Source: Escherichia coli | GTDB taxonomy: Bacteria; Pseudomonadota; Gammaproteobacteria; Enterobacterales; Enterobacteriaceae | Assembly (NCBI RefSeq): GCF_029227855.1 | Contig: NZ_CP074356.1 | Strand: one strand, 5' to 3' | DNA length: 64,000 nt | Shown here: positions 26,169 to 44,699 of the stretch, piece after piece | How the letters are laid out: every line of letters starts with the position of its first letter | How positions within the stretch are numbered: position 1 is the first letter of the stretch | Translations under genes and position numbers: made by a program | Notes under the pieces: generated by a model | The model's database searches: none | What the model was told of the DNA's origin: nothing | Seen by the model: only the letters and a program-made list of their open reading frames with translations

Positions 26169-26339
26169 GAGGTTGCCCTGTATTCAGTGTCGCTGATTTG
26201 TATTGTCTGAAGTTGTTTTTACGTTAGGTTGATGCAGATCAATTAATACGATACCTGCGTCATAATTGATTATTTGACGTGGTTTGATGGCCTCCACGCA
26301 CGTTGTGATATGTAGATGATAATCATTATCGCTTTACGG

Positions 26340-26540
26340 GTCCTTTCCGGTGATCCGACAGGTTACGGGGCGGCGACCTCGCGGGTTTTCGCTATTTATG
26401 AAAATTTTCTGGGGAAAATCATGTCGGTACTTCTCGAACATAACTATTTGTTTTTTCTAATATCGAATCCGTAAAAGGTCCGACATGAAAACGCCTAAAA
26501 AAGTCATTTTCGGGCACTTTCATGTCGGCCCCTGTATTTA
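26340..26540 (+). other. Prophage cos site: lambda-identical cosN (cohesive end GGGCGGCGACCT at 26369..26380) with a non-lambda cosB (three CATGTCGG-type elements)
   Basis: ACGGGTCCTTTCCGGTGATCCGACAGGTTACG|GGGCGGCGACCT|CGCGGGTTTTCGCTATTTATGAAAATTTTC matches lambda; downstream repeats differ from lambda R sites. Confidence 0.8.
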
Positions 26541-26555
26541 TTGTGAGACTGTTTC

Positions 26556-27075
26556 ATGAAGGTTAATAAAAAGAAACTTGCCGAAATTTTCAACGTGGAT
26601 CCGCGAACGATTGAACGCTGGCAGTCTCAGGGACTCCCTTGCGTCTCCGGAGGTGGTAAGGGCGTTGAATCTGTATTTGATACCGCCATGGCAATTCAGT
26701 GGTATGCGCAGAGGGAAGCTGATATCGAAAATGAAAAACTCCGTAAAGAGGTTGAGGATTACAGGGCTGCCAGTGAGGCAGATCTCCAGCCTGGGACTAT
26801 TGAGTACGAACGCCATCGACTTACGCGTGCGCAGGCCGACGCACAGGAGCTGAAGAATGCCAGAGACTCCGCAGAGGTGGTGGAAACCGCATTCTGTACT
26901 TTCGTGCTGTCACGGATCGCAGGTGAAATTGCCAGTATTCTTGACGGGATCCCTCTCTCGGTACAGCGGCGTTTTCCGGAACTGGAAAACCGACATGTTG
27001 ATTTCCTGAAACGGGATATCATCAAAGCCATGAACAAAGCAGCCGCGCTGGATGAACTGATACCGGGGTTGCTGA

Positions 27076-27101
<26 letters not shown>
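26556..27101 (+). CDS. Nu1: Terminase small subunit
   Basis: 181 aa collinear with lambda Nu1 (C-terminal two-thirds nearly identical; N-terminal DNA-binding region diverged). Confidence 0.9.
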
Positions 27102-30782
<3,681 letters not shown>

Positions 30783-30802
<20 letters not shown>

Positions 30803-32102
30803 TCTCCCGCATATTGCCAGCATGGCCTTTAATGAGCCGCTGATGCTTGAACCCGCCTATGCGCGGGTTTTCTTTTGTGCGCTTGCAGGCCAGCTTGGGA
30901 TCAGCCGCCTGACGGATGCGGTGTCCGGCGACAGCCTGACTGCCCAGGAGGCACTCGCGACGCTGGCATTATCCGGTGATGATGACGGACCACGACAGGC
31001 CCGCAGTTATCAGGTCATGAACGGCATCGCCGTGCTGCCGGTGTCCGGCACGCTGGTCAGCCGGACGCGGGCGCTGCAGCCGTACTCGGGGATGACCGGT
31101 TACAACGGCATTATCGCCCGTCTGCAACAGGCTGCCAGCGATCCGATGGTGGACGGCATTCTGCTCGATATGGACACGCCCGGCGGGATGGTGGCGGGGG
31201 CATTTGACTGCGCTGACATCATCGCCCGTGTGCGTGACATAAAACCGGTATGGGCGCTTGCCAACGACATGAACTGCAGTGCAGGTCAGTTGCTTGCCAG
31301 TGCCGCCTCCCGGCGTCTGGTCACGCAGACCGCCCGGACAGGCTCCATCGGCGTCATGATGGCTCACAGTAATTACGGTGCTGCGCTGGAGAAACAGGGT
31401 GTGGAAATCACGCTGATTTACAGCGGCAGCCATAAGGTGGATGGCAACCCCTACAGCCATCTTCCGGATGACGTCCGGGAGACACTGCAGTACCGGATGG
31501 ACGCAACCCGCCAGATGTTTGCGCAGAAGGTGTCGGCATATACCGGCCTGTCCGTGCAGGCTGTGCTGGATACCGAGGCTGCAGTGTACAGCGGTCAGGA
31601 GGCCATTGATGCCGGACTGGCTGATGAACTTGTTAACAGCACCGATGCGATCACCGTCATGCGTGATGCACTGGATGCACGTAAATCCCGTCTCTCAGGA
31701 GGGCGAATGACCAAAGAGACTCAATCAACAACTGTTTCAGCCACTGCTTCGCAGGCTGACGTTACTGACGTGGTGCCAGCGACGGAGGGCGAAAACGCCA
31801 GCGCGGCGCAGCCGGACGTGAACGCGCAGATCACCGCAGCGGTTGCGGCAGAAAACAGCCGCATTATGGGGATCCTCAACTGTGAGGAGGCTCACGGACG
31901 CGAAGAACAGGCGCGCGTTCTGGCAGAAACCCCCGGTATGACCGTGGAAACGGCCCGCCGCATTCTGGCCGCAGCACCACAGAGTGCACAGGCGCGCAGT
32001 GACACTGCGCTGGATCGTCTGATGCAGGGTGCACCGGCACCGCTGGCTGCAGGTAACCCGGCATCTGATGCCGTTAACGATTTGCTGAACACACCAGTGT
32101 AA
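30783..32102 (+). CDS. C: Head maturation protease / scaffold C
   Basis: GTG start giving VTAELRNLPHIASMAFNEPLMLEP..., 439 aa as lambda gpC; track ORF begins further upstream in the same frame. Confidence 0.9.
31707..32102 (+). CDS. Nu3: Scaffolding protein Nu3 (in-frame internal start within C)
   Basis: Internal ATG giving MTKETQSTTVSATASQ..., 131 aa, same frame as C. Confidence 0.6.
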   Translation: MTKETQSTTVSATASQADVTDVVPATEGENASAAQPDVNAQITAAVAAENSRIMGILNCEEAHGREEQARVLAETPGMTVETARRILAAAPQSAQARSDTALDRLMQGAPAPLAAGNPASDAVNDLLNTPV

Positions 32103-32111
32103 GGGATGTTT

Positions 32112-32444
32112 ATGACGAGCAAAGAAACCTTTACCCATTACCAGCCGCTGGGCAACAGTGACCCGGCTCATACCGCAACCGCGCCAGGCGGATTGAGTGC
32201 GAAAGCGCCTGCAATGACCCCGCTGATGCTGGACACCTCCACCCGTAAGCTGGTTGCGTGGGATGGCACCACCGACGGTGCTGCTGTCGGCATTCTTGCT
32301 GTTGCTGCTGACCAGACCAGCACCACGCTGACGTTCTACAAGTCCGGCACGTTCCGTTATGAGGATGTGCTCTGGCCGGAGGCTGCCAGCGACGAGACGA
32401 AAAAACGGACCGCGTTTGCCGGAACGGCAATCAGCATCGTTTAA
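32112..32444 (+). CDS. D: Head decoration protein D
   Basis: [27 protein letters not shown]...; lambda gpD. Confidence 0.9.
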
Positions 32445-32499
32445 CCTTACCCTTCATCACTAAAGGCCGCCTGTGCGGCTTTTTTTACGGGATTTTTTT

Positions 32500-32775
32500 A
32501 TGTCGATGTACACAACCGCCCAGCTGCTGGCGGCAAATGAGCAGAAATTTAAGTTTGATCCGCTGTTTCTGCGTCTCTTTTTCCGTGAGAGCTATCCCTT
32601 CACCACGGAGAAAGTCTATCTCTCACAAATTCCGGGGCTGGTAAACATGGCGCTGTACGTTTCGCCGATTGTTTCCGGTGAGGTTATCCGCTCCCGTGGC
32701 GGCTCCACCTCTGAATTTACGCCGGGATATGTCAAGCCGAAGCACTTAGCATGGCTTTCTGAGGCTTTCGTGTAG
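32500..32775 (+). pseudogene. E: Major capsid protein E, 5' fragment (codons 1-82) disrupted by insertion
   Basis: MSMYTTAQLLAANEQKFKFDPLFLRLFFRESYPF...EFTPGYVKPKH matches lambda gpE, then reads into foreign sequence (LAWLSEAFV, stop at 32775). Confidence 0.85.
32735..32744 (+). repeat. Left copy of 10-bp direct repeat AGCCGAAGCA (putative att core of the inserted element)
   Basis: Identical 10-mer at 43864..43873 exactly where E homology resumes. Confidence 0.6.
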
Positions 32776-32907
32776 CTGCTGGTTTTTACACTTAATCTTT
32801 TGATAATAAAGAATAAGTTTATCTGGCGCTTTCACTGAATTTTCCTCGTTATCTGTGTGTTGCAATCATCTCTGTATTGCAGCTTGTATTGCTTTTTGGG
32901 GCTAAAA

Positions 32908-34143
32908 ATGGCTGGCGAGAACAAACTGAGCGACAAAGCGCTTAAAGGATATCTGGGGAAACCCAGAGAAAAGCAGATCACCATTGCTGATGGAAAGGGG
33001 CTTTCTATTCGTGTGAGTACTAAAGGGGCTGTGAGCTTTGTTTTCTTCTACAGGTTAGCAGGTGGCCGGGCTGCTCCGGTCTGGCTAACGTTGGGTAAAT
33101 ATCCTGATATGTCACTCAAACAGGCAAGGGAAAAGCGCGACGAGTGCCGTGGTTGGTTGGCTGACAAACGTGATCCGCGTATCCAGATTAAGATTCAGGC
33201 TGAAGAACGCTTAAAGCCGGTCACAGTGGAGGATGCACTAAATTACTGGTATGAAAATTACTGTAAGGTGCGTCGTAAAACTCATGCTGTAACGCTTGGC
33301 AGATTTCGAAAGCATATCTTTCCCTATATCGGTCATTTGCCCGTAAATGACACTCACCTATATGAATAGCTGGACTGTTTTGACCGAATTAAACGTAATG
33401 CACCAGTTATGGCGGCGTATGTTTTTTCTGACACTAAATTAGCTCTTCGTTTTTGTCGGGTACGCCAGTACGCGACGTGTGATGCTTTAAAGGATTTGCG
33501 CATGAGTGATGTGGGGCAGATTGCAGGTAAGCGGGATCGGGTTCTGGATGAGGTCGAACTCGGCCAGCTCTGGAAGGCAATTTTTGTCGAGCCTGATTTA
33601 AAACTAATGTCTGAATACACGCGAAAAATGTTTGTGCTTTGTACAGTATTTGGATGTCGAATGAGTGAAGCCCGATTATCAGAATGGAGCGAATGGGATC
33701 TCGAAAGTTGGGTTTGGACTGTGCCAAAAGATCACTCAAAAACTGGTGTTGAAATCGTCAGACCAGTACCTGAAATTCTACGACAGTGGGTAACGGATGT
33801 TCACGAAGAGACAAAACATACTGGTTATGTGCTGGGAAGTCTGCGAATTAGAGAAAGCGTAAGCAAGATTGGGGGGAAAATCGGTAAACGTTTGGGCCAT
33901 GAAAAACAATGGTCACTACACGACCTTAGAAGAACGCTATCTACTCATCTAAGTGATCTCGGTGTTGAATTTTATGTAGTAGAACAACTGTTAGGCCATG
34001 CGCTACCTGGCGTGGCAGGTGTTTACAACCGGAGTAAGTTTATGGCTAAAAAACTGGATGCTCTGGAACTCTGGACTACATATCTCAATAGCATCGCAGC
34101 TGCTGATTCAAAAGTGACAATCCTCAAACAAAAGGCTGGTTAG
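32908..34143 (+). pseudogene. int: P4-type tyrosine integrase interrupted by an in-frame amber codon (TAG at 33367..33369)
   Basis: Track ORFs 32857..33369 and 33409..34143 are in the same frame; P4-int-like N-terminus (..KGLSIRVSTKGAVSFVFFYR..GKYPDMSLKQAREKRDE..); TAG sits where homologues have Trp. Confidence 0.8.
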
Positions 34144-34144
34144 C

Positions 34145-34375
34145 ATGAAAAAAATGGCAATTGTTGATAAAAAGGGTCTGGAGTACATTCCTAACATTGA
34201 CCGAATGATCCGTGAGAAAGAATGTCGGGAGCTAACTACTCTTGCGAACAGCACACGCTGGAAGCTGGAGAAGGAAGGAAAATTTCCTAAGCGGATCAAG
34301 ATTGGTTCCACTGCTGTTGCATATCGTCTTTCAGAAGTGCAGGCATGGATTCGAGGTGAGTGGGAAACAACTTAA
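34145..34375 (+). CDS. alpA: AlpA-family transcriptional regulator / excisionase-like protein
   Basis: 76 aa, HTH (..CRELTTLANSTRWKLEKEGKFPKRIKIGSTAVAYRLSEVQAWI..) directly after int. Confidence 0.75.
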   Translation: MKKMAIVDKKGLEYIPNIDRMIREKECRELTTLANSTRWKLEKEGKFPKRIKIGSTAVAYRLSEVQAWIRGEWETT

Positions 34376-34382
34376 CTATTAG

Positions 34383-35213
34383 GTGGGCATTGTGGCTATA
34401 TTTCATTATACAGATCTTTTTGGTTTGAAAGGTATATTAGACTCTAATTCTTTATGGGCTACAAACATATATTTCTTAAATGATAAAGAGGAGTCTAACC
34501 ATGGATGTGAATGCTTTCGAAATACAATTAAAATAGTTGATGACAATATCATTCCAAAAGATAAGAAAACTATTTTGCTCAAGTCTCTTGACATGTATGA
34601 GAAAGGGAGGTTACAAAAAGAAAAAGGGATTGATAAACATGTTTATAGCATCTCTTTTTGTAAGGAAAACGATAAGTTAAGTCAGTGGAGAGGTTACGGA
34701 AATAAACAGGGTGTTTGCATTGAGTTTGATGCGGATGAACTTGTGAGCTTTTCTCAAAATATTTATTTAAATTGTGTTGCACATGATGTTATATATTCAA
34801 ATAATAACGATATTACTAAGATGAGTAAGGAGTTGGGAGAGTTTTTTTCTTGTAATGGTATTAATATTAAAGAAATGAATGATCATTTTGTAACAATGGT
34901 CTCTACGTATCAATTTATATCTAAATACATCCCATTTTTTAAACATCCTAGTTTTATCGAAGAGAATGAATTTAGATTGGTATTTACTCCGTGGATGCAA
35001 ATGCCAGATGTGCACTTCAGAATAAATAATAATGGGATCATCCCTTATATCATCATTGATAATAAAGATAATAGAAAGTTACCAATTAAAAGCATTACAA
35101 TTGGCCCGACAAACGATTATGATTTCATTGAGGCTGGTATAAAAATGTTCTTGGATTCAAGAGGATTTAGTTCTGTGGAAATTAAATCCTCATCAATTCC
35201 ATTCAGGGGGTAA
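34383..35213 (+). CDS. DUF2971-like protein (276 aa), AT-rich cargo gene
   Basis: N-terminal IFHYTDLFGLKGILDSNSLWATNIYFLNDKEE resembles the DUF2971 signature; very low GC; start could be GTG 34383 or GTG 34391. Confidence 0.6.
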   Translation: MGIVAIFHYTDLFGLKGILDSNSLWATNIYFLNDKEESNHGCECFRNTIKIVDDNIIPKDKKTILLKSLDMYEKGRLQKEKGIDKHVYSISFCKENDKLSQWRGYGNKQGVCIEFDADELVSFSQNIYLNCVAHDVIYSNNNDITKMSKELGEFFSCNGINIKEMNDHFVTMVSTYQFISKYIPFFKHPSFIEENEFRLVFTPWMQMPDVHFRINNNGIIPYIIIDNKDNRKLPIKSITIGPTNDYDFIEAGIKMFLDSRGFSSVEIKSSSIPFRG

Positions 35214-35258
35214 GGATTAACACTTTTAATCTATGATATTATAAAAATGGTGGATAAA

Positions 35259-35278
35259 GGCGACCAGAATTGGTCGCC
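35259..35278. terminator. Bidirectional hairpin between convergent cargo genes
   Basis: AGGCGACCAGAATTGGTCGCC perfect inverted repeat. Confidence 0.4.
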
Positions 35279-35344
35279 AATGTGAGTATATAGTTAGCCT
35301 TAATCAGAATACGAGGTTATCGCCTGATAGGCAATGTGAACAGT

Positions 35345-35701
35345 TCAATATTTAGGTGGTTCAACAAGAGCGTTTATCATTGCTCTCAAATTATCGCGAA
35401 CACTTATCCAAGTCTGTTCTGCTCGTTCTAACTCATCAGTGTACAACTTTAATGTTTTATCTATGCCATATGTGGCTATTAAATTTATAGCTTCTTGTAA
35501 TTTTTCAGGATTATTCCTTCTTGGGGGAGTGAATATACCACGGATTTTTCCGGTAATTAAAGCTTTACGGTGTCTACATAGAATACCTTTACTTCCTGCT
35601 GGACAATTACAAGTCATGATTAGCGAGCCAGAATCGTTTGATACAGTGACTATGTATACATCCAAACTACTGCTACTTGTTGCGAAGAATTCGTATTTCA
35701 T
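35345..35701 (-). CDS. Small SWIM-type zinc-finger protein (118 aa)
   Basis: CNCPAGSKGILCRH (CxC..CxH) motif; AT-rich. Confidence 0.55.
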   Translation of the reverse strand: MKYEFFATSSSSLDVYIVTVSNDSGSLIMTCNCPAGSKGILCRHRKALITGKIRGIFTPPRRNNPEKLQEAINLIATYGIDKTLKLYTDELERAEQTWISVRDNLRAMINALVEPPKY

Positions 35702-35728
35702 GTGTTAGCTCCTTGACTTCAATTATTC

Positions 35729-35860
35729 TTATCCTTTTGGTTCAATACCGCGCCGTAGCAGCTCTTTGCGCCCTAATTCTTTAAGCCAGTTGGCTAGGCT
35801 TATGCCGTCGCTCTGCGCTTCTTTGTCGAATTGCTCTTTTAGCTCTGGAGAAATTCGCAT
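35729..35860 (-). CDS. Small ribbon-helix-helix-like protein (43 aa; longer in-frame form to 36043 possible)
   Basis: MRISPELKEQFDKEAQSDGISLANWLKELGRKELLRRGIEPKG; immediately upstream of the SWIM gene on the same strand. Confidence 0.45.
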   Translation of the reverse strand: MRISPELKEQFDKEAQSDGISLANWLKELGRKELLRRGIEPKG

Positions 35861-36059
35861 TCTGAATTGTGGAGATTGCCCATCACCCTTAGGACTTTTA
35901 TCGCGTTTGATCGTTGACAAGTGACCACCTATTGAATTAGCCTTTTCATTGTTAGGTGACCACCTTAACACGGGGGCACTTAAAAAAGCAAAGCCCGAAG
36001 GTGCTGGGAACACCAACGGGCTTCTAACCACCAACGATAGCAACAGTATCGAGGTAGCT

Positions 36060-36263
36060 ATGAGAAATCATACCACACACCCGCAAGGGCGGGACCCGCA
36101 CAACCTGAATAAATACATCTGGCGTTTTATCGCCTTGAGTACGGCACAACCGCGCATGATTACCATCGAGGCCATCAGCGAACAGGAAGCCCGCCAGCAA
36201 TCCCCAACTGGCTGCGTGATGGTATTCGCCGCCCGTATTCGTCAGGAGGTGTGCCGTGCTTAA
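36060..36263 (+). CDS. Small hypothetical satellite protein (67 aa)
   Basis: ATG with GAGG RBS; first of five tightly coupled small genes preceding the primase. Confidence 0.4.
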   Translation: MRNHTTHPQGRDPHNLNKYIWRFIALSTAQPRMITIEAISEQEARQQSPTGCVMVFAARIRQEVCRA

Positions 36264-36441
36264 AACCTTCCGTGTATTTGCCCGAGCTGTTAACCCACTG
36301 GGCCACACAATTGGTATCACTCAGAACGTGAAGGCTGTTAATGTTCAGACGGCTATTGCTGCGGTGAGAAGCGAATCATCAGAATATGGCTTATCACAAG
36401 TCATTATTTCAGCAGTGTATGAATTAAAAGAGGTGCATTAA
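36256..36441 (+). CDS. Small hypothetical satellite protein (61 aa)
   Basis: Track ORF, overlaps neighbours by a few nt. Confidence 0.4.
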   Translation: MLKTFRVFARAVNPLGHTIGITQNVKAVNVQTAIAAVRSESSEYGLSQVIISAVYELKEVH

Positions 36442-36632
36442 TGCAGGAAATCACATTACACGAAGCCGCTGAACGTGCGCACCAGACAGAAATTATTTGC
36501 CGCCTTCTTGAGGTATACCCGAACAAAATTACAGATGCTGATATATCCGCGCTGGCGAGCCTACTGGCGCGCCTTTCGGGAAGTGTCGCTAGTTTCCTGA
36601 TTGAGGAAGAAAGTAAGCTGGTGGGGGATTAA
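36441..36632 (+). CDS. Small hypothetical satellite protein (63 aa)
   Basis: Track ORF, start overlaps upstream stop. Confidence 0.4.
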   Translation: MQEITLHEAAERAHQTEIICRLLEVYPNKITDADISALASLLARLSGSVASFLIEEESKLVGD

Positions 36633-36854
36633 ATGAATACAGAACGGGAAGTCTTTTTTAAATTGTTAGCATGTGCAGAAAGTTCATTAACTTTAAATAA
36701 TTCAGCAAAAGCAATATTAAATATGTGGCTTGATTGCATAAATGACAATGAAGATGCAAATATTGCTTATGGCCTGTTGTCACTTATTGATGAATCAGCA
36801 GAAAAACTCAATGACGCAATAAATAGTGCCCTGCTATCAAATAAGTCGAGTTAA
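36633..36854 (+). CDS. Small hypothetical satellite protein (73 aa)
   Basis: Track ORF. Confidence 0.4.
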   Translation: MNTEREVFFKLLACAESSLTLNNSAKAILNMWLDCINDNEDANIAYGLLSLIDESAEKLNDAINSALLSNKSS

Positions 36855-36871
36855 GTCGAGGAATAAATAAT

Positions 36872-37171
36872 ATGGAAATGAAAAATTCTGGCTTTATTGC
36901 CAGCGGCCCCGCTCGGCCTGAATTTATGAACGGCGATATTTACCGCGATAAATACGGCGGCACGGTAACGATTAAAGGCGTGGCAGAACGGCGCATCACT
37001 TACCGCCGTGAGGGGTATAGCTATGACTGCGTGATGCCTGTTTATCAGTTCCGGCGTGATTTTTCCCTGGTATATGCCGCACCCCGCAGTAAGCCCATCA
37101 GCAGGGAAAAAGCGCGGGGAAACATCCAGAAAATGAAAAGCATGATTAACGCATTCAGGGGCAAAAAATGA
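36872..37171 (+). CDS. Small hypothetical satellite protein (99 aa)
   Basis: Track ORF, stop overlaps primase start. Confidence 0.45.
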   Translation: MEMKNSGFIASGPARPEFMNGDIYRDKYGGTVTIKGVAERRITYRREGYSYDCVMPVYQFRRDFSLVYAAPRSKPISREKARGNIQKMKSMINAFRGKK

Positions 37172-38919
37172 AACTGGCACCGAACTTAAAAAAACAGCCA
37201 CGCGACAGACTGACAGAGGTAATCATCTTTGCAGGTAGTGATGCGTGGAGCCATGCGAAAGAGTGGCGGGAATGGGCGGGTAAACATATTGCCGCCGACG
37301 ATGTGCCGCCTGTCGTGCTGGCTGATGAGCAACTGAAAAATATCACCGATTACCGGATCATTGATGAAGATCGTCAGTGTGTGCGTGTTTACCGCGCAGG
37401 ACATATCACAGAGCACAGCATGACGCAGATTGTTACGTTACTGGCTGTGGCTGGAGTGAAGACCGTACACGAATACGCGGGGATTACTGACACCAGCCCA
37501 GTGGATTTATCCGAGCAGTTGCCGCGACTCAAAGAGGAATGCGAGCGTGGGGAAAGTCTGGTGCTTAATCTTCCGACGAAGCAAAAGGCGCAACTTTCAC
37601 AGATGGCAGACAGTGAACGTGCACAACTACTTGCCGATCGCTTTGATGGTGTGTGTGTTCATGCAGAAAGTGAAATCGTCCACGTATGGCGCGGCGGGGT
37701 ATGGTGTCCGGTCAGCACAATGGAGCTGAGCCGCGAAATGGTGGCGATCTATTCAGAGCACAGGGCCACGTTCAGCAAACGTGTAATCAATAACGCCGTG
37801 GAAGCGTTAAAAGTTATTGCCGACCCCATGGGGGAGCCGTCCGGTGATTTGCTACCGTTCACTAATGGTGTGCTTAACCTGAAAACGGGGGAATTTTCTC
37901 CGCACTCGCCGGAGCACTGGAGCACCACGCACAATGGCATTGAGTACACGCCACCAGTAGCAGGGGAAAACATCCGCGATAATGCGCCAAATTTCCATAA
38001 ATGGCTTGAACATGCTGCAAGAAAAGACCCGCGCAAGATGATGCGTATATGTGCCGCGTTATACATGATTATGGCGAACCGCTACGACTGGCAGATGTTC
38101 ATTGAGGCCACCGGAGACGGGGGAAGCGGTAAGAGTACATTTACCCATATTGCCACCCTGCTTGCTGGCAAACAGAACACCGTAAGCGCGGAGATGACAT
38201 CACTCGATGATGCAGGAGGGCGCGCGCAGGTTGTCGGGAGTCGTCTTATCGTCCTTGCCGATCAGCCGAAATATACGGGGGAAGGCACGGGCATCAAGAA
38301 AATCACGGGAGGCGATCCCGTTGAAATTAACCCGAAATATGAGAAGCGATTCACGACGATAATAAGGGCGGTGGTACTGGCAACCAATAACGACCCGATG
38401 ATCTTTACCGAACGGGCCGGAGGTGTGTCACGCCGTCGGGTGATTTTCCGGTTCGACAACATTGTAAGGGAGGACGAAAAAGACAAGGAATTACCGGAAA
38501 AGATAGCGGCAGAAATCCCCGTAATTATCCGCCGCTTGCTGGCTAATTTTGCTGACCCTGAAAAGGCACGGGCTTTATTACTGGAACAGCGTGACGGTGA
38601 TGAAGCTCTGGCAATAAAGCAGCAAACGGATCCGGTTGTTGAGCTTTGCGCGGCGCTGGAGTTTCTGGAGGAAGCTCGTGGGCTAATGATGGGCGGTGGT
38701 GGTGACACCGTGAAGTACACGACCAGAAACAGCCTTTACCGTGTCTATATGGCCTTCATGGCATACACAGGAAAGGGGAAATGTTTGAGCGTGAATGAGT
38801 TCGGAAAGGCTATGAGGTCAGCGGCGAAAGTTTACGGATATGAATATATTACGCGAAAAGTTAAGGGAGTCACGCAGACCAACGCAACGACTACTGATGA
38901 TTGCGATGCGTTTTTATAA
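37168..38919 (+). CDS. Primase/replicase (P4 alpha / D5-type), 583 aa
   Basis: Walker A GDGGSGKST in the C-terminal half; large N-terminal domain; followed by iterons. Confidence 0.8.
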   Translation: MKLAPNLKKQPRDRLTEVIIFAGSDAWSHAKEWREWAGKHIAADDVPPVVLADEQLKNITDYRIIDEDRQCVRVYRAGHITEHSMTQIVTLLAVAGVKTVHEYAGITDTSPVDLSEQLPRLKEECERGESLVLNLPTKQKAQLSQMADSERAQLLADRFDGVCVHAESEIVHVWRGGVWCPVSTMELSREMVAIYSEHRATFSKRVINNAVEALKVIADPMGEPSGDLLPFTNGVLNLKTGEFSPHSPEHWSTTHNGIEYTPPVAGENIRDNAPNFHKWLEHAARKDPRKMMRICAALYMIMANRYDWQMFIEATGDGGSGKSTFTHIATLLAGKQNTVSAEMTSLDDAGGRAQVVGSRLIVLADQPKYTGEGTGIKKITGGDPVEINPKYEKRFTTIIRAVVLATNNDPMIFTERAGGVSRRRVIFRFDNIVREDEKDKELPEKIAAEIPVIIRRLLANFADPEKARALLLEQRDGDEALAIKQQTDPVVELCAALEFLEEARGLMMGGGGDTVKYTTRNSLYRVYMAFMAYTGKGKCLSVNEFGKAMRSAAKVYGYEYITRKVKGVTQTNATTTDDCDAFL

Positions 38920-38935
38920 AAAATGGCAATGGTTA

Positions 38936-39170
38936 TCTACCTTGTCTACCTGACTGAAAGAAAATACTTTTATTTCAATGTATTAATGCAGGTAGATAAC
39001 TATTTTTCACTGTCTACCTGTTATCTACCTTATCTACCCATTTTTGTAGACAGGTAAGGAGACGGGTAGAGATGAGGTAGACAGCTATTTGGGGCTGTCT
39101 ACCTCCCTGAAACCCGCGCCATTACTGGCCTGATAACTAATCAGGTAGACAAGGTAGACAAGGTGGTGGT
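38936..39170. repeat. Iteron array (putative satellite replication origin)
   Basis: About 12 copies of (A/G)TCTACC / GGTAGA(C/T) in both orientations within ~235 bp. Confidence 0.7.
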
Positions 39171-39208
39171 GCACAAAAAACTTTTTAAACGAGGGGGTAA
39201 AAATAAAA

Positions 39209-39466
39209 ATGCACACTTCAGGAAAACTGAACAAACATATAAAGCCACATTACCGCGCCCTTGATATGGCTGAACACTGGCTAAGGGTGGCGATTAAGGC
39301 AATAGACCGCAACGCCGGGGAAGGATACGCGAAAGCACATCCCGAACTGATAAGCGCATTCATGACAACGGCGGCTGCAAACTTTGCCACGCTGACCGAA
39401 CGGGAGATTGCTGAAGCGGAGGAAGTGACAACAATCAATATTAAGTCCGGAGAGCAGGCAGCATGA
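39209..39466 (+). CDS. Hypothetical satellite protein (85 aa)
   Basis: Track ORF, translationally coupled to the SSB gene. Confidence 0.45.
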   Translation: MHTSGKLNKHIKPHYRALDMAEHWLRVAIKAIDRNAGEGYAKAHPELISAFMTTAAANFATLTEREIAEAEEVTTINIKSGEQAA

Positions 39467-39912
39467 CGGCGCAAATATCAGTTTACGGGCGGTTGGTGGA
39501 CGACCCGCAGACAAAACAGACCAGCAAGGGCACCCCCATGACGCTGGCGCGTATGGCGGTATCACTGCCCTGCAGTCAGTCGGATGACGGTCTGGCGACG
39601 TTGTGGTTATCTGTCCTGGCGTTTGGCAGACAAGCCGACGCGCTGGCAAAGCATCACAAAGGCGAACTCCTGAGCGTGGCGGGTAACATGCAGATGAGCC
39701 AGTGGACTGGACAGAACGGCGAAACGCGGCAGGGCTGGCAGGTTATCGCAGACAGCGTAATCAGTGCGCGATCGGTGCGACCGGGCGGCAAAAAAGGCCA
39801 ACAGGGGCAGGCTACTGACGCACTGAACAGAGCAAAACAACAGGCAGATCAGCAAGGAAGCCAGCCACCAGAGGGAGATAATGAGCAATGGGGAGATGAT
39901 ATCCCGTTTTAA
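39463..39912 (+). CDS. ssb: Single-stranded DNA-binding protein
   Basis: OB-fold-like N-terminus, Gly/Gln-rich linker and acidic C-terminal tail ending DDIPF. Confidence 0.8.
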   Translation: MTAQISVYGRLVDDPQTKQTSKGTPMTLARMAVSLPCSQSDDGLATLWLSVLAFGRQADALAKHHKGELLSVAGNMQMSQWTGQNGETRQGWQVIADSVISARSVRPGGKKGQQGQATDALNRAKQQADQQGSQPPEGDNEQWGDDIPF

Positions 39913-40128
39913 ATATTGCCAATAAAAAAAGCCGGAAAAAATAAATTTTCCGGCATGCTACATAAATCCCGACCAAAGGGAGTGAAGATATTAACACTAA
40001 TTGTCCGCACTGAAGTTGTCACACCAAAACTTTATACAACATTGCACTCGGTTGCATGTGTTCGCATGACAAATATCGGTGATAGCATATATCCACAATT
40101 ATTTTTAATGAATGCAAAGAGGATGCGT

Positions 40129-41169
40129 ATGGTTGATTTATATTCGCCTACTCAGCTTGTACAGGTAGTTAATGCTGTAGATGTACAAAAACAACTAAAT
40201 GCGTTGTTTACCAGTTTGTTTTTTACTCGCTCGGTAATGTTTGAATCGCGCGATATTATTCTTGATACAATCGACGATCCAAATATCCCAATTGCAGCGT
40301 TTTGTTCTCCTATGGTGGGTAGTAAAGTTTCACGTGACGAAGGGTACGAATCAAAAACAATTCGTCCAGGCTATATGAAGCCGAAAAGCAGCATTGATCC
40401 AAATAAGTTAGCTGTGCGCCCTGCTGGTGTGTCACCTGAGCAATACAATGCTTTTGGGGCGCGTAATATTAAAGTTAAACAGGCGATTGTAAATCAGGCT
40501 AAAGCTATTCGTGCACGTATTGAATGGCTTGCTGTTCAGGCAATCACAACGGGGAAAAATATCATTGAGGGCGATGGTATTGAACGTTATGAGCTGGACT
40601 GGAATATAAAACCACAAAATATCATCACTCAGTCTGGCGGTACTGAGTGGTCAGGTAAGGATAAAGAAACTTTTGATCCAAATGATGATATTGAGAGCTA
40701 CGCAGAATTTAGTGAGGGCGTCACTAATATCATCATTATGGGTGGTAATGTATGGAAGAAATACCGTTCATTCAGAGCGATAAAAGAGGCTTTGGATACC
40801 CGTCGTGGTTCTAATTCCGAACTGGAAACGGCCCTTAAAGACCTTGGTGATTCGGTGAGTTTTAAAGGGTATATGGGCGATGTTGCGATTGTTGTTTACA
40901 GCGGGCGTTATACCGACGAGGACGGAACAGAAAAACATTTCCTTGATCCTGATTTGATGGTGCTTGGCAATACGGCTCTTCAGGGGATTGTCGCCTATGG
41001 CGGTATTCAGGATCCGGAGCTAATCCGAATGGGGCTGACTAAAGCCGAACTTGCACCGAAAAACTATATTGTGCCTGGTGATCCGGCTATTGAATATGTG
41101 CAGACACATTCAGCACCACAGCCAATACCGGCCCGCATCAATCGTTTTGTTACCGTTCGCATTGGCTAA
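40129..41169 (+). CDS. Satellite-encoded major capsid protein, lambda gpE family (346 aa)
   Basis: Collinear similarity to gpE (ITQSGGTEWSGKDKETFDPNDDIESYA..., ..LDTRRGSNSELETALKDLG..GDVAIVVYSGRY..MVLGNT..); start set at MVDLYSPTQ with AGGA RBS. Confidence 0.8.
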   Translation: MVDLYSPTQLVQVVNAVDVQKQLNALFTSLFFTRSVMFESRDIILDTIDDPNIPIAAFCSPMVGSKVSRDEGYESKTIRPGYMKPKSSIDPNKLAVRPAGVSPEQYNAFGARNIKVKQAIVNQAKAIRARIEWLAVQAITTGKNIIEGDGIERYELDWNIKPQNIITQSGGTEWSGKDKETFDPNDDIESYAEFSEGVTNIIIMGGNVWKKYRSFRAIKEALDTRRGSNSELETALKDLGDSVSFKGYMGDVAIVVYSGRYTDEDGTEKHFLDPDLMVLGNTALQGIVAYGGIQDPELIRMGLTKAELAPKNYIVPGDPAIEYVQTHSAPQPIPARINRFVTVRIG

Positions 41170-41178
41170 GGGGGAGCA

Positions 41179-41520
41179 ATGGCTACTCATTACACTGAAC
41201 TCATGGCTGGCACTGAAGCACTGGTGACTACGCTGGGGATATTTTCAGCTAATAAAGGGGTAATTCCTGCATTTACGCCACTGATGCAGGAAGATGCAAC
41301 AGGTGCACTGGTGGTATGGGATGGTTCGAGCGTAGGTAAAGCGGTTTATGTTTCCGCTGTACAAATCGACACCGCGAAAAAAACACAGGCTCAGGTCTAT
41401 AAGACAGGTGTCTTAAATGTTGATGCTCTGAACTGGCCTGAGTCTGTTAAAGAACTGTCAGTAAAGGTTGCAGCGTTTGTTGGCTCAGGTATTTCTGTTC
41501 AGCCGCTGGCTCGTGTGTAA
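41179..41520 (+). CDS. Satellite-encoded head decoration protein, lambda gpD-like (113 aa)
   Basis: Shares THY, TPLM, LVVWDG, YKTG, WPE, AF.G..IS motifs with gpD at matching positions. Confidence 0.7.
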   Translation: MATHYTELMAGTEALVTTLGIFSANKGVIPAFTPLMQEDATGALVVWDGSSVGKAVYVSAVQIDTAKKTQAQVYKTGVLNVDALNWPESVKELSVKVAAFVGSGISVQPLARV

Positions 41521-41531
41521 AGGGGGATACA

Positions 41532-41915
41532 ATGCAGAATGATTACAATGACCTTAAGCCAATTGCCGAAATGATGTACCCGAATCAAGCTGTAGAGGAA
41601 TTAAAAGCTATCGCTGACAAAATGTGTTTAAGCGAGCGCCTTGTTGATATGAATCAGGTGATGGAAATTACAACCCTGAGTCGTCGTACACTGCTAAACC
41701 TTGAGGCTAGTGGAGAGTTCCCGGAGCGTGTGCAGGTTACGGAAGGGCGTAAGGCCTGGTATTTAAGTGAAGTGATCGACTGGATAAATAATATTCCTCG
41801 CGCTTCTGAATATTGCCGCGTACCTGTCCCAAAAAAGCCAGATGCGGCGCTATGCCTCAAGATTGAGCGTGTACGCCGCAATGCACGGGATGGTCGCTAT
41901 AAGCTGATTGGTTGA
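41532..41915 (+). CDS. AlpA/MerR-like winged-HTH protein immediately upstream of the satellite cos
   Basis: 127 aa with HTH (..MNQVMEITTLSRRTLLNLEASGEFPERVQVTEGRKAWYLSEVIDWINN..). Confidence 0.6.
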   Translation: MQNDYNDLKPIAEMMYPNQAVEELKAIADKMCLSERLVDMNQVMEITTLSRRTLLNLEASGEFPERVQVTEGRKAWYLSEVIDWINNIPRASEYCRVPVPKKPDAALCLKIERVRRNARDGRYKLIG

Positions 41916-41939
41916 TGAAATTAGGACCCGCTCTGGCTG

Positions 41940-42145
41940 GCGGGTCCTTTCCGGCGATCCAGAACGTTACGGGGCGTCAGGCGCGCAGTTTTTCGCTATT
42001 TGTGAAAATTTTCCTGTTTAAGGCGTTTCCGTTCTTCTTCGCCGTAACTTAATGTTTTTATTAAAAACACCCCCTAAAAAGAAAGGAAACGACAGGTGCT
42101 AAAAACAGGCTTTTTGGCCTCTGTCGTTTCCTTTCTCTGGTTTTG
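41940..42145 (+). other. Second cos site, belonging to the satellite: altered cohesive-end sequence (GGGCGTCAGGCG at 41972..41983) with lambda-type cosB elements
   Basis: GGGTCCTTTCCGGCGATCC..GTTACG|GGGCGTCAGGCG|CGCAGTTTTTCGCTATTTGTGAAAATTTTCCTGTTTAAGGCGTTTCCGTTCTTCTTCG..GAAAGGAAACGACAGGTG..TCTGTCGTTTCCTTTCTC tracks lambda cos closely. Confidence 0.75.
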
Positions 42146-42481
42146 TTGCCATCCGTCGCGGTCTATCACCAGAAAAAATCTTATCCCTGAGTTGAATCAG
42201 GCCCTATTCAGAAGCGGCCAATAACGCGCCGCTAGCTTCACTTCATAGTTATGGCCTACTTCTGCGCCATTGCAATTGCTTTATGCGCCTTGATGGTGGA
42301 ATATAGAGCAAGCAGTTTGCGAATAACAAAGTTTCATATGTTTTTTGCTGTGTGGCTAGACAACTTTACAGCAGAGTTTTGTGTCAGTTCTTTATGTGTG
42401 CAAGCAAGCTTGAGGGGGAATTACTTCTGGCTGTATCTTTGCTTAAGAACAGCAATAATTTAATCATAAGGAAATGTATAT

Positions 42482-42504
42482 AAGCCTGATTAAATTTCAG
42501 GCTT
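42482..42504 (-). terminator. Hairpin terminator after the TIR gene
   Basis: AAGCCTGA-TTAAATT-TCAGGCTT just 3' of the stop. Confidence 0.4.
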
Positions 42505-42513
42505 ATTGAAATG

Positions 42514-43656
42514 TTAACTCCTTATTAGAGAGTAAATTCCATCCTCTTTAAGGAAGTCTATTACTTCAAAGAATGAGATAAAGAATTCCCAAGAACCAAA
42601 AGCATATGCATGAATTTCGTAAGGTGCAAAATGGAATCTAAATCCATCACTATTTATTGTGAACGAGTCTAAGTTACTATCCATGATACCCGTTGCAAAC
42701 GTACTAATGTCGTCCTCACTTGGTTTTTCACCAGTTTTCTCCCAAAATTCACGAGCTGATTCAGAGATTATTTTTTGTTTTATCTTATTAATCGCTTCTT
42801 GCTCTTTCCCTTCGGTAAATACATCCCATAAACTAAATTTGTATGCGTAGTCATCCTTGGTTATTACGAAATTACTAGTTTCAAAATGACTGTTAGGGTG
42901 TGCTGCTCCCGCACCATACCAATGTACGGAATGAAGGATGCTCATGACATTTTCGTTACAGTATGAGATGTTATAACTTTCATTATAGGAACTAGTGTAA
43001 GTGTGTTTATATTCTTCATCCCAATATGGTGTTCCTGGCCATAGTGATGTGCGTTCAGAAAAAATATGTAAAGCCGCTTTTCCTGAAAAGTAATCACTAA
43101 TGAGTTTTGCTGATTTCGGTAATGTATGGCTTTCAATTCTTGGATATGCTATTTCAATTTCATGCCCTGGGATCTTGTTATATTCTTCCTTGAAAACCTC
43201 GCTGCTAAAGTTAAATGGCCCATAAGTGATACCTTGAGATATTTCAAGTTTTTGTTGCGATGCTGCTAATCTTAAAGATCTAGATAAAATGTCCCAACCA
43301 TCATTTCTCTTAAAATCAATGAATTGGAGCTTGCTTGATATGTAGGCGGGTACTTCGCAATCATCAATAAGTAATGGTATCACGAACACATCATCTGGTT
43401 TGTAATACTTTAGTTTATCAATGGCGTCATTTATTTCGCGGCGAATATAACCATTTTTCTGAGTGCTCACTTTGCTAAGGATAAGGATTATCAAGTTTGA
43501 ATTAGCGAAGTTTTTTTGGATTTCATAATCCCAGTTTACGCCAGCGGGTATATCTTTTACATCCATCCAAGGGGAATATCCTCCACTTTTTAGCCTTTCA
43601 TAGATTTCTTCAGTTATCGTTTCATCTTCTTTTGCATGAGCAAGAAAAATTTTCAT
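42514..43656 (-). CDS. TIR-domain protein with ~250-aa C-terminal domain of unknown function (380 aa); candidate anti-phage defence gene
   Basis: N-terminus MKIFLAHAKEDE...SNLIILILSKVS..YIRREINDAIDK..VIPLLIDD fits the bacterial TIR pattern; AAGGA RBS; AT-rich; between satellite cos and right att repeat. Confidence 0.75.
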   Translation of the reverse strand: MKIFLAHAKEDETITEEIYERLKSGGYSPWMDVKDIPAGVNWDYEIQKNFANSNLIILILSKVSTQKNGYIRREINDAIDKLKYYKPDDVFVIPLLIDDCEVPAYISSKLQFIDFKRNDGWDILSRSLRLAASQQKLEISQGITYGPFNFSSEVFKEEYNKIPGHEIEIAYPRIESHTLPKSAKLISDYFSGKAALHIFSERTSLWPGTPYWDEEYKHTYTSSYNESYNISYCNENVMSILHSVHWYGAGAAHPNSHFETSNFVITKDDYAYKFSLWDVFTEGKEQEAINKIKQKIISESAREFWEKTGEKPSEDDISTFATGIMDSNLDSFTINSDGFRFHFAPYEIHAYAFGSWEFFISFFEVIDFLKEDGIYSLIRS

Positions 43657-43863
43657 TGAATATTCCTTTATAATTTAACTAATTAAGTGAAGGAGGCTTT
43701 ACTTGGCTGTGTTAGAAAAAATTCGGTTTGTTTTTTGTACGATGCCAAGAAGGCTTTTCCCTAACCATGTATTGCAGCATGTATTGCTACGTAATTCTGC
43801 ACCCTCTCATTTATAAAATAAATCTCTGTTAAATCAAGTATCTTTTTTCTATTTGACTCATGT

Positions 43864-43873
43864 AGCCGAAGCA
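43864..43873 (+). repeat. Right copy of 10-bp direct repeat AGCCGAAGCA
   Basis: Identical to 32735..32744; E reading frame resumes immediately after. Confidence 0.6.
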
Positions 43874-44699
43874 TGAGGTGAATCCGCAGATGACCCTGCG
43901 TCGCCTGCCGGATGAAGATCCGCAGAATCTGGCGGACCCGGCTTACCGCCGCCGTCGCATCATTATGCAGAACATGCGTGACGAAGAGCTGGCCATTGCC
44001 CAGGTCGAAGAGATGCAGGCAGTTTCTGCCGTGCTTAAGGGCAAATACACCATGACCGGTGAAGCCTTCGATCCGGTTGAGGTGGATATGGGCCGCAGTG
44101 AGGCGAATAACATCACGCAGTCCGGCGGCACGGAGTGGAGCAAGCGTGACAAGTCCACGTATGACCCGACCGACGATATCGAAGCCTACGCGCTGAACGC
44201 CAGCGGAGTGGTGAATATCATCGTGTTTGATCCGAAAGGCTGGGCGCTGTTCCGTTCCTTCAAAGCCGTCAAGGAGAAGCTGGATACTCGTCGCGGCTCT
44301 CATTCCGAGCTGGAGACAGCGGTGAAAGACCTGGGCAAAGCGGTGTCCTACAAGGGGATGTATGGCGATGTGGCCATCGTCGTGTATTCCGGACAGTACG
44401 TGGAAAACGGCGTCAAAAAGAACTTCCTGCCGGACAACACGATGGTGCTGGGGAACACTCAGGCACGCGGTCTGCGCACCTATGGCTGCATTCAGGATGC
44501 GGACGCACAGCGCGAAGGCATTAACTCCTCTGCCCGTTACCCGAAAAACTGGGTGACCACCGGCGATCCGGCGCGTGAGTTCACCATGATTCAGTCAGCA
44601 CCGCTGATGCTGCTGGCTGACCCTGATGAGTTCGTGTCCGTACAACTGGCGCAATCGTGGCCCTTCGGGGCCATTTTCTCTCTGTGGAGGAGTCCATGA
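43866..44699 (+). pseudogene. E: Major capsid protein E, 3' fragment (codons ~80-341) plus 15-codon readthrough extension
   Basis: PKHEVNPQMTLRRLPDEDPQNLADPAYRRRRIIMQN... matches lambda gpE to ..DEFVSVQLA; the lambda stop position reads CAA here, so the frame runs to TGA at 44697..44699. Confidence 0.85.

Follow-up and report, generated by a model that had tools for sequence, protein, structure and literature searches.

Satellites of the helper-embedded PICI (HE-PICI) kind have been described at the site E:Phage_cap_E (Tommasini, Mageeney and Williams, 2023; PMC10111431). One of them, 11capE, lies in gene E of prophage 50icd in NRG857c, where the cos sites of helper and satellite share 258 bp at 90% identity (PMC10111431). 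A solution is known from E. coli PICIs that encode Rpp directly after cos, a protein that forms a heterodimer with the helper TerS (PMC6739421, PMC9026076). In EcCICFT073, cos1 is located beside capsid and decoration genes, its cosB is unreadable by the resident helper TerS, and RppA is encoded directly after it (Fillol-Salom et al., 2019; PMC6739421). Within R3, bp 56, 58, and 59 have published roles (PMC4669245 and PMC9026076), bp 56 being the known base that discriminates lambda from phage 21, while TerS residues 17-24 correspond to the published TerS-lambda recognition helix, with specificity roles for E20 and S24 (PMC4669245). In helper-packaging tests, a 21-specific helper with cosB-21, a 21/Nu1 chimeric TerS, and lambda TerL packaged lambda-specific DNA at 8.1e-4, and cognate pairs in the same tests yielded 1.24-1.75 per cell (PMC4669245, Table 6).

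The locus compared here with these systems lies in a window of 64,000 nucleotides of Escherichia coli DNA (contig NZ_CP074356.1). An HE-PICI satellite of 11,129 bp, delimited by its junction cores and by comparison with relatives, occupies 32745-43873 (+ strand) within a helper prophage's major capsid gene E. The 10-bp core AGCCGAAGCA is found at both junctions (32735-32744 and 43864-43873), and a lambda-like reading frame of E is regained when its two fragments are joined. According to PHROG assignments, the satellite encodes, in order, integrase, AlpA, a variable zone, primase, SSB, capsid, decoration, and a second AlpA-family HTH protein, followed by cos and cargo. These junction cores, the restored E, and the int/alpA/primase-ori/late-zone gene order are the features that define an HE-PICI at the site E:Phage_cap_E. 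An earlier note on this DNA had described two cos sites in one prophage. Both sites were correctly located and are on the + strand, but they belong to two nested elements, and the second cos belongs to the nested satellite, outside the prophage proper.

The satellite genes for the major capsid and head decoration proteins (40129-41520, + strand; PHROG 29 and PHROG 49) encode products with 42% and 38% identity to the E and D proteins of the helper, respectively. The 127-aa AlpA-family HTH protein (41532-41915, + strand; phrog_2790, 3e-49; PDB 8c3t, 2e-9) is encoded directly upstream of cos. On the other side of cos, a TIR-domain cargo gene (42514-43656, - strand) lies in the position where relatives have terS, rpp, or other cargo. 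Its 380-aa product has an N-terminal TIR domain, and the best PADLOC hits, to Aga_TIR-PNTD models, cover this domain alone; in the same position, immediately after cos, relatives have Abi, HEPN/DUF262, or DUF2971 genes or genes of unknown kind. Direct and inverted repeats 3′ of the primase gene (38932-39104), in which GTTATCTACCTTGTCTACC and AGGTAGA...TCTACCT each occur twice, are probably iterons of the satellite replication origin. A doubled motif, TGTATTGCAGCNTGTATTGCT, close to both satellite ends (32873-32893 and 43768-43788) is probably the arm-type integrase site, reported as the "doubled DNA sequence motif" of HE-PICI attP regions.

The best matches to the full satellite reach 86% coverage at 99.4% identity. 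Comparison with 11capE of NRG857c (PMC10111431) reveals the same gene E site, a 10-bp identity block, and collinear integration and late zones comprising integrase, AlpA, capsid, decoration, HTH, and cos. The 12-mer GGGCGTCAGGCG and a lambda-type cosB are also shared. The two elements differ in their middle (Bro, replication) zones and cargo and in a stop codon in the window integrase. They differ also in their surroundings, since the helper cos of NRG857c is lambda-type and matches its satellite, whereas the window helper has a cosB and a TerS DNA-binding domain of the 21 type.

The satellite possesses a complete lambda-type cos at 41942-42146 (+ strand), in which cosQ, cosN, I2, R3, I1, R2, and R1 are all present in lambda order, orientation, and spacing. 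The extent of the site was set by gap-free alignment to the cos of lambda, DE3, and YDC107_1, which covers everything from cosQ to R1 in full. The site shares 92% identity with phages YDC107_1 and PhiR46_1 and 88% with lambda/DE3 (E = 4e-80). In the numbering used here, lambda bp 1, the first cohesive-end base, is 41972. The cosQ heptamer GGGTCCT (41942-41948, + strand) begins 30 bp and ends 24 bp to the left of the nick in the top strand, at the same offset as in lambda, and does not vary across all cos sites aligned. The predicted 12-base cohesive end GGGCGTCAGGCG (41972-41983, + strand), read directly and placed by the lambda alignment, stands in the context ACG-GGGCGTCAGGCG-CGC (41969-41986), with a conserved CG on both sides and predicted nicks 12 bp apart. 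The canonical cohesive end GGGCGGCGACCT is thus absent, though the canonical 12-mer is not a strictly defining trait. I2 and the cosN-R3 spacer (41984-42020, + strand) have the lambda length with 4 substitutions. R3 (AGGCGTTTCCGTTCTT; 42021-42036, + strand), the inverted R2 with its GGAAACG core (42082-42097, - strand), and R1 with its CGTTTCC core (42121-42136, + strand) are identical to their lambda counterparts; the earlier note had described both the elements and their spacing as lambda-type. R3 retains the lambda-type T at bp 56 (base 42027) and C at bp 58 and 59. The I1 region between R3 and R2 (42041-42075, + strand) is a putative IHF site by position and lambda similarity.

In contrast to lambda cos, the satellite site differs at 5 of the 12 cohesive-end bases, is not followed by a Nu1 gene after R1, and is found in a satellite behind an HTH gene. 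Similarity between satellites stops at 42146, which is 10 bp beyond R1, in some relatives and at 42275 in others, with different cargo beyond. Judged from its sequence, 41942-42146 is the packaging site of the HE-PICI and a cos of ordinary lambda specificity. A 10-bp GC-rich hairpin whose 3′ arm is cosQ, followed by TTTCC (41923-41948; fold -19.5 kcal/mol, z-score only -1.7), may serve as a late-operon terminator at the packaging site.

The earlier note was also correct that the satellite 12-mer is changed. Relative to lambda, GGGCGTCAGGCG has changes at positions 6, 8, 9, 10, and 12 and keeps G2 and C11. A private mutation of the window was considered as its source and rejected, since 53 viral contigs in an exact scan and most related E. 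coli satellites carry it. About 48 of the 53 contigs (~90%) are satellite-type, with an AlpA-like gene upstream, and 3-4 are of the phage type and encode a lambda Nu1 of 181 aa; a large terminase gene is seen in one of these as well. The satellites of the E. coli composites have GGGCGTCAGGCG in 9 of 12 cases, GGGCGGAAGGCG in 1, and the canonical 12-mer in 2, and all helpers have the canonical form. The related variant GGGCGGAAGGCG is also found in phage YDC107_1 and several viral contigs. GGGCGTCAGGCG persists across satellite cosB types. Changes at cosN positions 7-12 have little effect on cutting, and lambda TerL cuts N15 cosN as well as its own (PMC4669245). Natural variants of the 12-mer differ at positions 9 and 12 in N15 and phiD326 and at positions 8, 9, and 11 in Gifsy-1 (PMC4669245). 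Four of the five GGGCGTCAGGCG changes fall at positions reported to be tolerant, and position 6 is the only left-half change. GGGCGTCAGGCG differs from these natural variants in having five changes, position 6 included, and in that ~90% of its occurrences are in satellites. The simplest reading is that GGGCGTCAGGCG represents a marker of the satellite lineage that is tolerated by cutting, and a cohesive-end sequence characteristic of a satellite family appears not to have been described previously.

The helper cos (26338-26540, + strand) begins with a lambda-type cosQ-cosN-I2 block, which extends to 26409 and is followed by a phage-21-type cosB. Its 12-mer at 26368-26379 is the canonical GGGCGGCGACCT, so that the cohesive end is lambda-identical, as had been claimed. 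The repeats that the earlier note had called non-lambda are indeed not those of lambda, though they are already known: the three CATGTCGG boxes (26420-26427, 26480-26487, inverted, and 26521-26528) are labeled R3, R2, and R1 in the annotated phage 21 cos (M81255), to which the helper site is 86% identical. At R3 bp 56, the helper has the 21-type G (base 26423). The cosN starts of the helper (26368) and the satellite (41972) are 15,604 bp apart in the same orientation. The alignments of both sites, to lambda and to phage 21, bear out the claim that the two differ in cosB specificity.

The 21-type sequence of the helper is confined to a specificity cassette at 26410-26770 (+ strand), which comprises cosB and approximately the first 72 codons of terS and was recognized by sequence identity. 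Identity of the cassette to phage 21 is 80-93%, against only 53-68% to lambda, and its flanks are 96-100% lambda-type over 26300-26900 (97-100% at 26300-26409 and 96-97% from 26771 on). The helper TerS of 181 aa (26556-27101, + strand) therefore has a 21 recognition helix on a lambda-type C-terminal half. Its residues 17-24, RTIERWQS, are those of phage 21 gp1 (E20, S24), while lambda has RTIQNWQE (Q20, E24), in agreement with the earlier observation of a non-lambda N-terminal DNA-binding region. The helper large terminase (27076-29001, + strand; 641 aa, from the ORF list) is intact and lambda-type, and window positions 26700-34364, which include it, match the helper of DSM 103246, which is lambda-type, at 97.8% identity. 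The small terminase is thus a natural chimera, created by a 21-type cassette within an otherwise lambda-type head module. The helper has the architecture of the laboratory hybrid lambda-21hy51 (Feiss laboratory; PMC4669245) in the lambda-type C-terminal half of its TerS and its lambda-type TerL, and resembles phage 21 and lambda-21hy51 alike in the three CATGTCGG boxes, the bp-56 G, and the E20/S24 recognition helix. The helper departs from phage 21 in that identity within the cassette is 80-93% (86% over the cos region) and in that the recombinant is a natural one, the rest of the prophage being unlike phage 21. The proposal of swapped specificity elements is not upheld, as the exchange is not reciprocal: the helper gained a 21-type cassette, and the satellite family has its own cosN variant independently, whatever its cosB.

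Gene names can mislead in this matter. RefSeq calls lambda-type Nu1 genes nohA or nohD (loci L001, L005, L006, L007, and L008) and 21-type genes "terminase small subunit". An initial view that all helpers were 21-type, drawn from the names nohA and nohD, was dropped, since lambda-type Nu1 sequences carry those names too; gene names are therefore no guide to packaging specificity.

From the yields in PMC4669245, a laboratory terminase of the same design as that of the helper uses lambda-cosB DNA ~2000-fold worse than cognate DNA. Given these 21hy51 yields, together with T in the satellite and G in the helper at bp 56, the cosB mismatch between satellite and helper is judged to be real and, by the published genetics, severe for initiation. 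For the same reason, it is very unlikely that the helper terminase binds lambda-type R sites equally well. With a cognate helper, a lambda-type TerS dimer and IHF would be expected to bind R3-I1-R2-R1. The bound TerS would position the lambda-type large terminase, which would then nick 12 bp apart at cosN to leave 5′ ends of GGGCGTCAGGCG. Concatemers of the 11.1-kb element would be packaged rightwards, with internal cos sites skipped until the head is full at four units (44.5 kb), and packaging would terminate via cosQ, cosN, and I2. With the resident helper, initiation at the satellite cos would be weaker by approximately a thousand-fold than with a lambda-specific helper because of the 21-type cosB and TerS DNA-binding domain, and neither a satellite TerS nor Rpp would be available to offset the mismatch. 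If binding, nicking, and packaging efficiency follow these predictions, the window satellite is probably poorly mobilized by its own helper, though packaging at ~1e-3 could still be useful for transfer.

The distribution of such pairs was surveyed with a query extending from the helper cos into the satellite integrase, by which composites were grouped. The survey is a sample of 11 fetched loci and 60 listed rows, not a census, and its counts ignore shared ancestry. Among the best 60 E. coli records, 10 are continuous through the 21-type cassette and 50 break there; at 10 of 60, the mismatch is a minority state. Five composites were fetched from the 50 (DSM 103246, PRO_A-1443, 382634_2f, 2015C-4136CT1, and NRG857c), and in all five the helper has a cosB of the lambda type together with lambda Nu1 and thus fits its satellite. 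The suggestion of a different preferred helper is supported on both counts, by the lambda-type helper cos in 5 of 5 checked composites that lack the window's cassette and by the divergence of the helper at the cassette in at least 50 of the best 60 E. coli records.

Composites with a 21-type helper present a more varied picture. Of the seven examined, including the window, four are mismatched, one is matched, and two have another cosB. The mismatched satellites (the window, MLI106K3, S1bESBLb, and UID2309220033) are without a functional satellite terS. The matched satellite, that of E. coli A37, contains a 527-bp copy of the helper cos-terS cassette that is 97.9% identical to it. In A37 (L130, 27540-28308), the satellite cosN, cosB, and 5′ part of terS are replaced by this copy, leaving an intact chimeric terS of 183 aa. 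The SCU-101 and N1420 satellites have yet another cosB and their own 180-aa TerS-like gene. In these two (L135, 26808-27525; L136, 27051-27768) and in viral contigs L056 and L075, a cosB with the GGTGGTGGTTTTGTTGTTCG region is followed by the 180-aa TerS-like protein (MKLHLMNKKNMA...). The post-cos protein of L056 and L075 (156-180 aa) was considered as an Rpp and rejected, as it has no match to 6hlk; given this and a C-terminal half that is TerS-like by eye, it is treated as a satellite TerS-like protein. Among the relatives, terS is carried by A37, SCU-101, N1420, and 4 viral contigs, and the post-cos terS gene can be intact, nonsense-mutated, truncated, or absent.

Satellite and helper modules also appear to be distributed independently of one another. 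The cos/cargo junction of the window (41700-42400) is 99.6% identical to that of DSM 103246, which has a lambda-type helper, and the same Nu1 W22* pseudogene is found in 382634_2f, with a lambda-type helper, and in MLI106K3, with a 21-type helper. These patterns point to an independent assortment of modules and not to a designed mismatch. It is therefore probable, and is held here with reasonable confidence, that the pair represents a mismatch left by module shuffling, in which the satellite cos is otherwise of an ordinary lambda type. A by-product of modular exchange is the most likely explanation, and the mismatch is probably not an adaptive redirection device. Its history may have followed one of two routes: the satellite may have inserted into the conserved gene E attB of a prophage that was not its cognate, or a later replacement may have changed the cos cassette of the helper. 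The occurrence of the mismatch in 4 of the 7 examined 21-type-helper composites, however, means that it is not rare in this subgroup, which could hint at tolerance or function.

An adaptive history is the alternative that fares best, though it is considered improbable. According to this explanation, helpers would escape embedded satellites that use their cos by swapping cosB together with the TerS DNA-binding domain, and satellites would respond with a copy of the new cassette or with a TerS and cosB of their own. The segment exchanged in the helper approximates the specificity unit itself, cosB and ~72 terS codons including the DNA-binding domain, within flanks that are lambda-type on either side. 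The captured cassette of A37, with its intact terS among 21-type helpers, the different cosB and own TerS-like gene of SCU-101 and N1420, and the varied state of Nu1 in other satellites could each be viewed as a satellite countermove. A consideration against this explanation is derived from ordinary phage contigs. A pattern scan of viral contigs uncovered one conserved cosQ-cosN-I2 block combined with at least six cosB classes, the 12-mer being nearly always canonical and the break point lying immediately right of I2, so cassette swapping is common irrespective of satellites. Among the classes (L012, L033, L047, L056, L102, and others) are those with CAGATCC, CATGTCCGG, or GGTTGTTGT repeats, and the TerS N-terminus differs from class to class. 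The composite counts are in addition small and ignore shared ancestry. The same low probability is given to the extended proposal that GGGCGTCAGGCG is an adaptive, private sticky end that counters annealing to helper ends, with cassette swapping and capture recording an arms race over packaging specificity. If true, lambdoid prophages and the satellites lodged in their capsid genes would be engaged in such a race to this day.

The condition of the window copy raises a different alternative, in which the satellite cos is a relic without function, or serves solely in cis to end helper packaging too early, the element being no longer able to excise. The satellite integrase gene (32908-34143, + strand) contains a premature stop, W154* (TAG at 33367-33369), identified by comparison with relatives; it is otherwise nearly identical to an intact relative (1232/1236, 99.7%), in which the codon is TGG. 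Given this single lesion, the window copy is probably unable to excise by itself. The helper E stop codon is also missing at 44652-44654, where DSM 103246 has TAA and the window CAA, such that the restored E gains 15 C-terminal residues and ends at TGA (44697-44699). Termination at a downstream cos is independent of cosB (PMC4669245); the helper terminase would accordingly encounter, 15.6 kb downstream of the helper cos, a second cos competent for termination. Against premature termination, cutting at a downstream cos in lambda depends on head filling: a cos only 15.6 kb downstream is far too close and should be skipped. Without satellite excision, E would not be restored, and the composite would have two co-oriented cos sites and, with its 11.1-kb insert, may well exceed head capacity. 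For these reasons the window copy looks stranded. All cos subsites are nevertheless intact and match mobile relatives at 98-99%, and one nonsense codon is a very recent lesion that is uninformative on how the site originally worked. The relic or terminator explanation is accordingly regarded as quite unlikely for the site, whatever the fate of this copy.

The earlier note had also allowed for a redirection factor. In this reading, a satellite protein would adapt the 21-type terminase to lambda R sites in the manner of Rpp. The candidate would be the 127-aa HTH protein or another small ORF: every family member examined has the HTH gene 27 bp upstream of cosQ, and PICIs are known to redirect TerS through a cos-adjacent wHTH protein (PMC6739421). 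RppA of EcCICFT073 (L137:27660-28094), its identity verified by a match to the RppC structure (6hlk, E = 5e-31), served as the query. No RppA homolog was found with it in either the satellite or the remainder of the window (best phmmer --max score 3 bits; best tblastn E = 3.4). No satellite-borne TerS was found either, as lambda Nu1 matches only the helper gene (26556-27095) in the window, and the slot after R1 that holds rpp or terS in relatives contains neither gene here and is taken by the opposite-strand TIR gene. The HTH protein was considered as an Rpp and rejected, since a structure search matched only an AlpA-family protein, outside the TerS/Rpp family. Moreover, it does not covary with cosB type: satellites with lambda-type cosB and SCU-101, with a third cosB type, have the protein at 100% identity, and the A37 satellite with a 21-type cosB differs from it by one residue. 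EcCICFT073 and the window satellite share a cos beside capsid and decoration genes whose cosB is not of the type read by the resident helper TerS. EcCICFT073, however, combines a canonical 12-mer with a lack of phage R sites and has RppA directly behind cos, whereas in the window satellite the 12-mer is a variant, the lambda R3/R2/R1 are complete, and Rpp is missing. The marks of an Rpp-type PICI are thus lacking, as no rpp follows cos and cosB has phage R sequences, and the SaPI-like strategy of an own TerS is likewise lacking, as no terS is located at the packaging site. EcCICFT073 also has a second, inverted cos (L137, ~28290-28390, - strand) with CATGTCCGG-type repeats, a cosB class of many phage contigs, e.g., L033. 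Most relatives reside in lambda-type helpers, where redirection is unnecessary. A redirection factor that has escaped recognition is the least probable of the explanations and is given very little credence.

The most likely explanation thus remains a mismatch produced by modular exchange. The components of the locus are all of known kinds, namely an HE-PICI, a cos of the lambda class, and a helper cassette of the 21 class, and it is their combination, a helper/satellite cosB mismatch without Rpp or TerS, that appears not to have been described previously. HE-PICIs have been presumed to be packaged via a cos shared with the surrounding prophage, and the window is a natural counter-example. Its relatives display every intermediate, from matched cos through captured cassette, own TerS, and decaying TerS to no TerS. 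Because every intermediate is present, the satellite family therefore provides a ready-made series for testing how packaging specificity is gained and lost, how Rpp-like proteins could originate from TerS, and whether a satellite-specific cohesive end serves any function.
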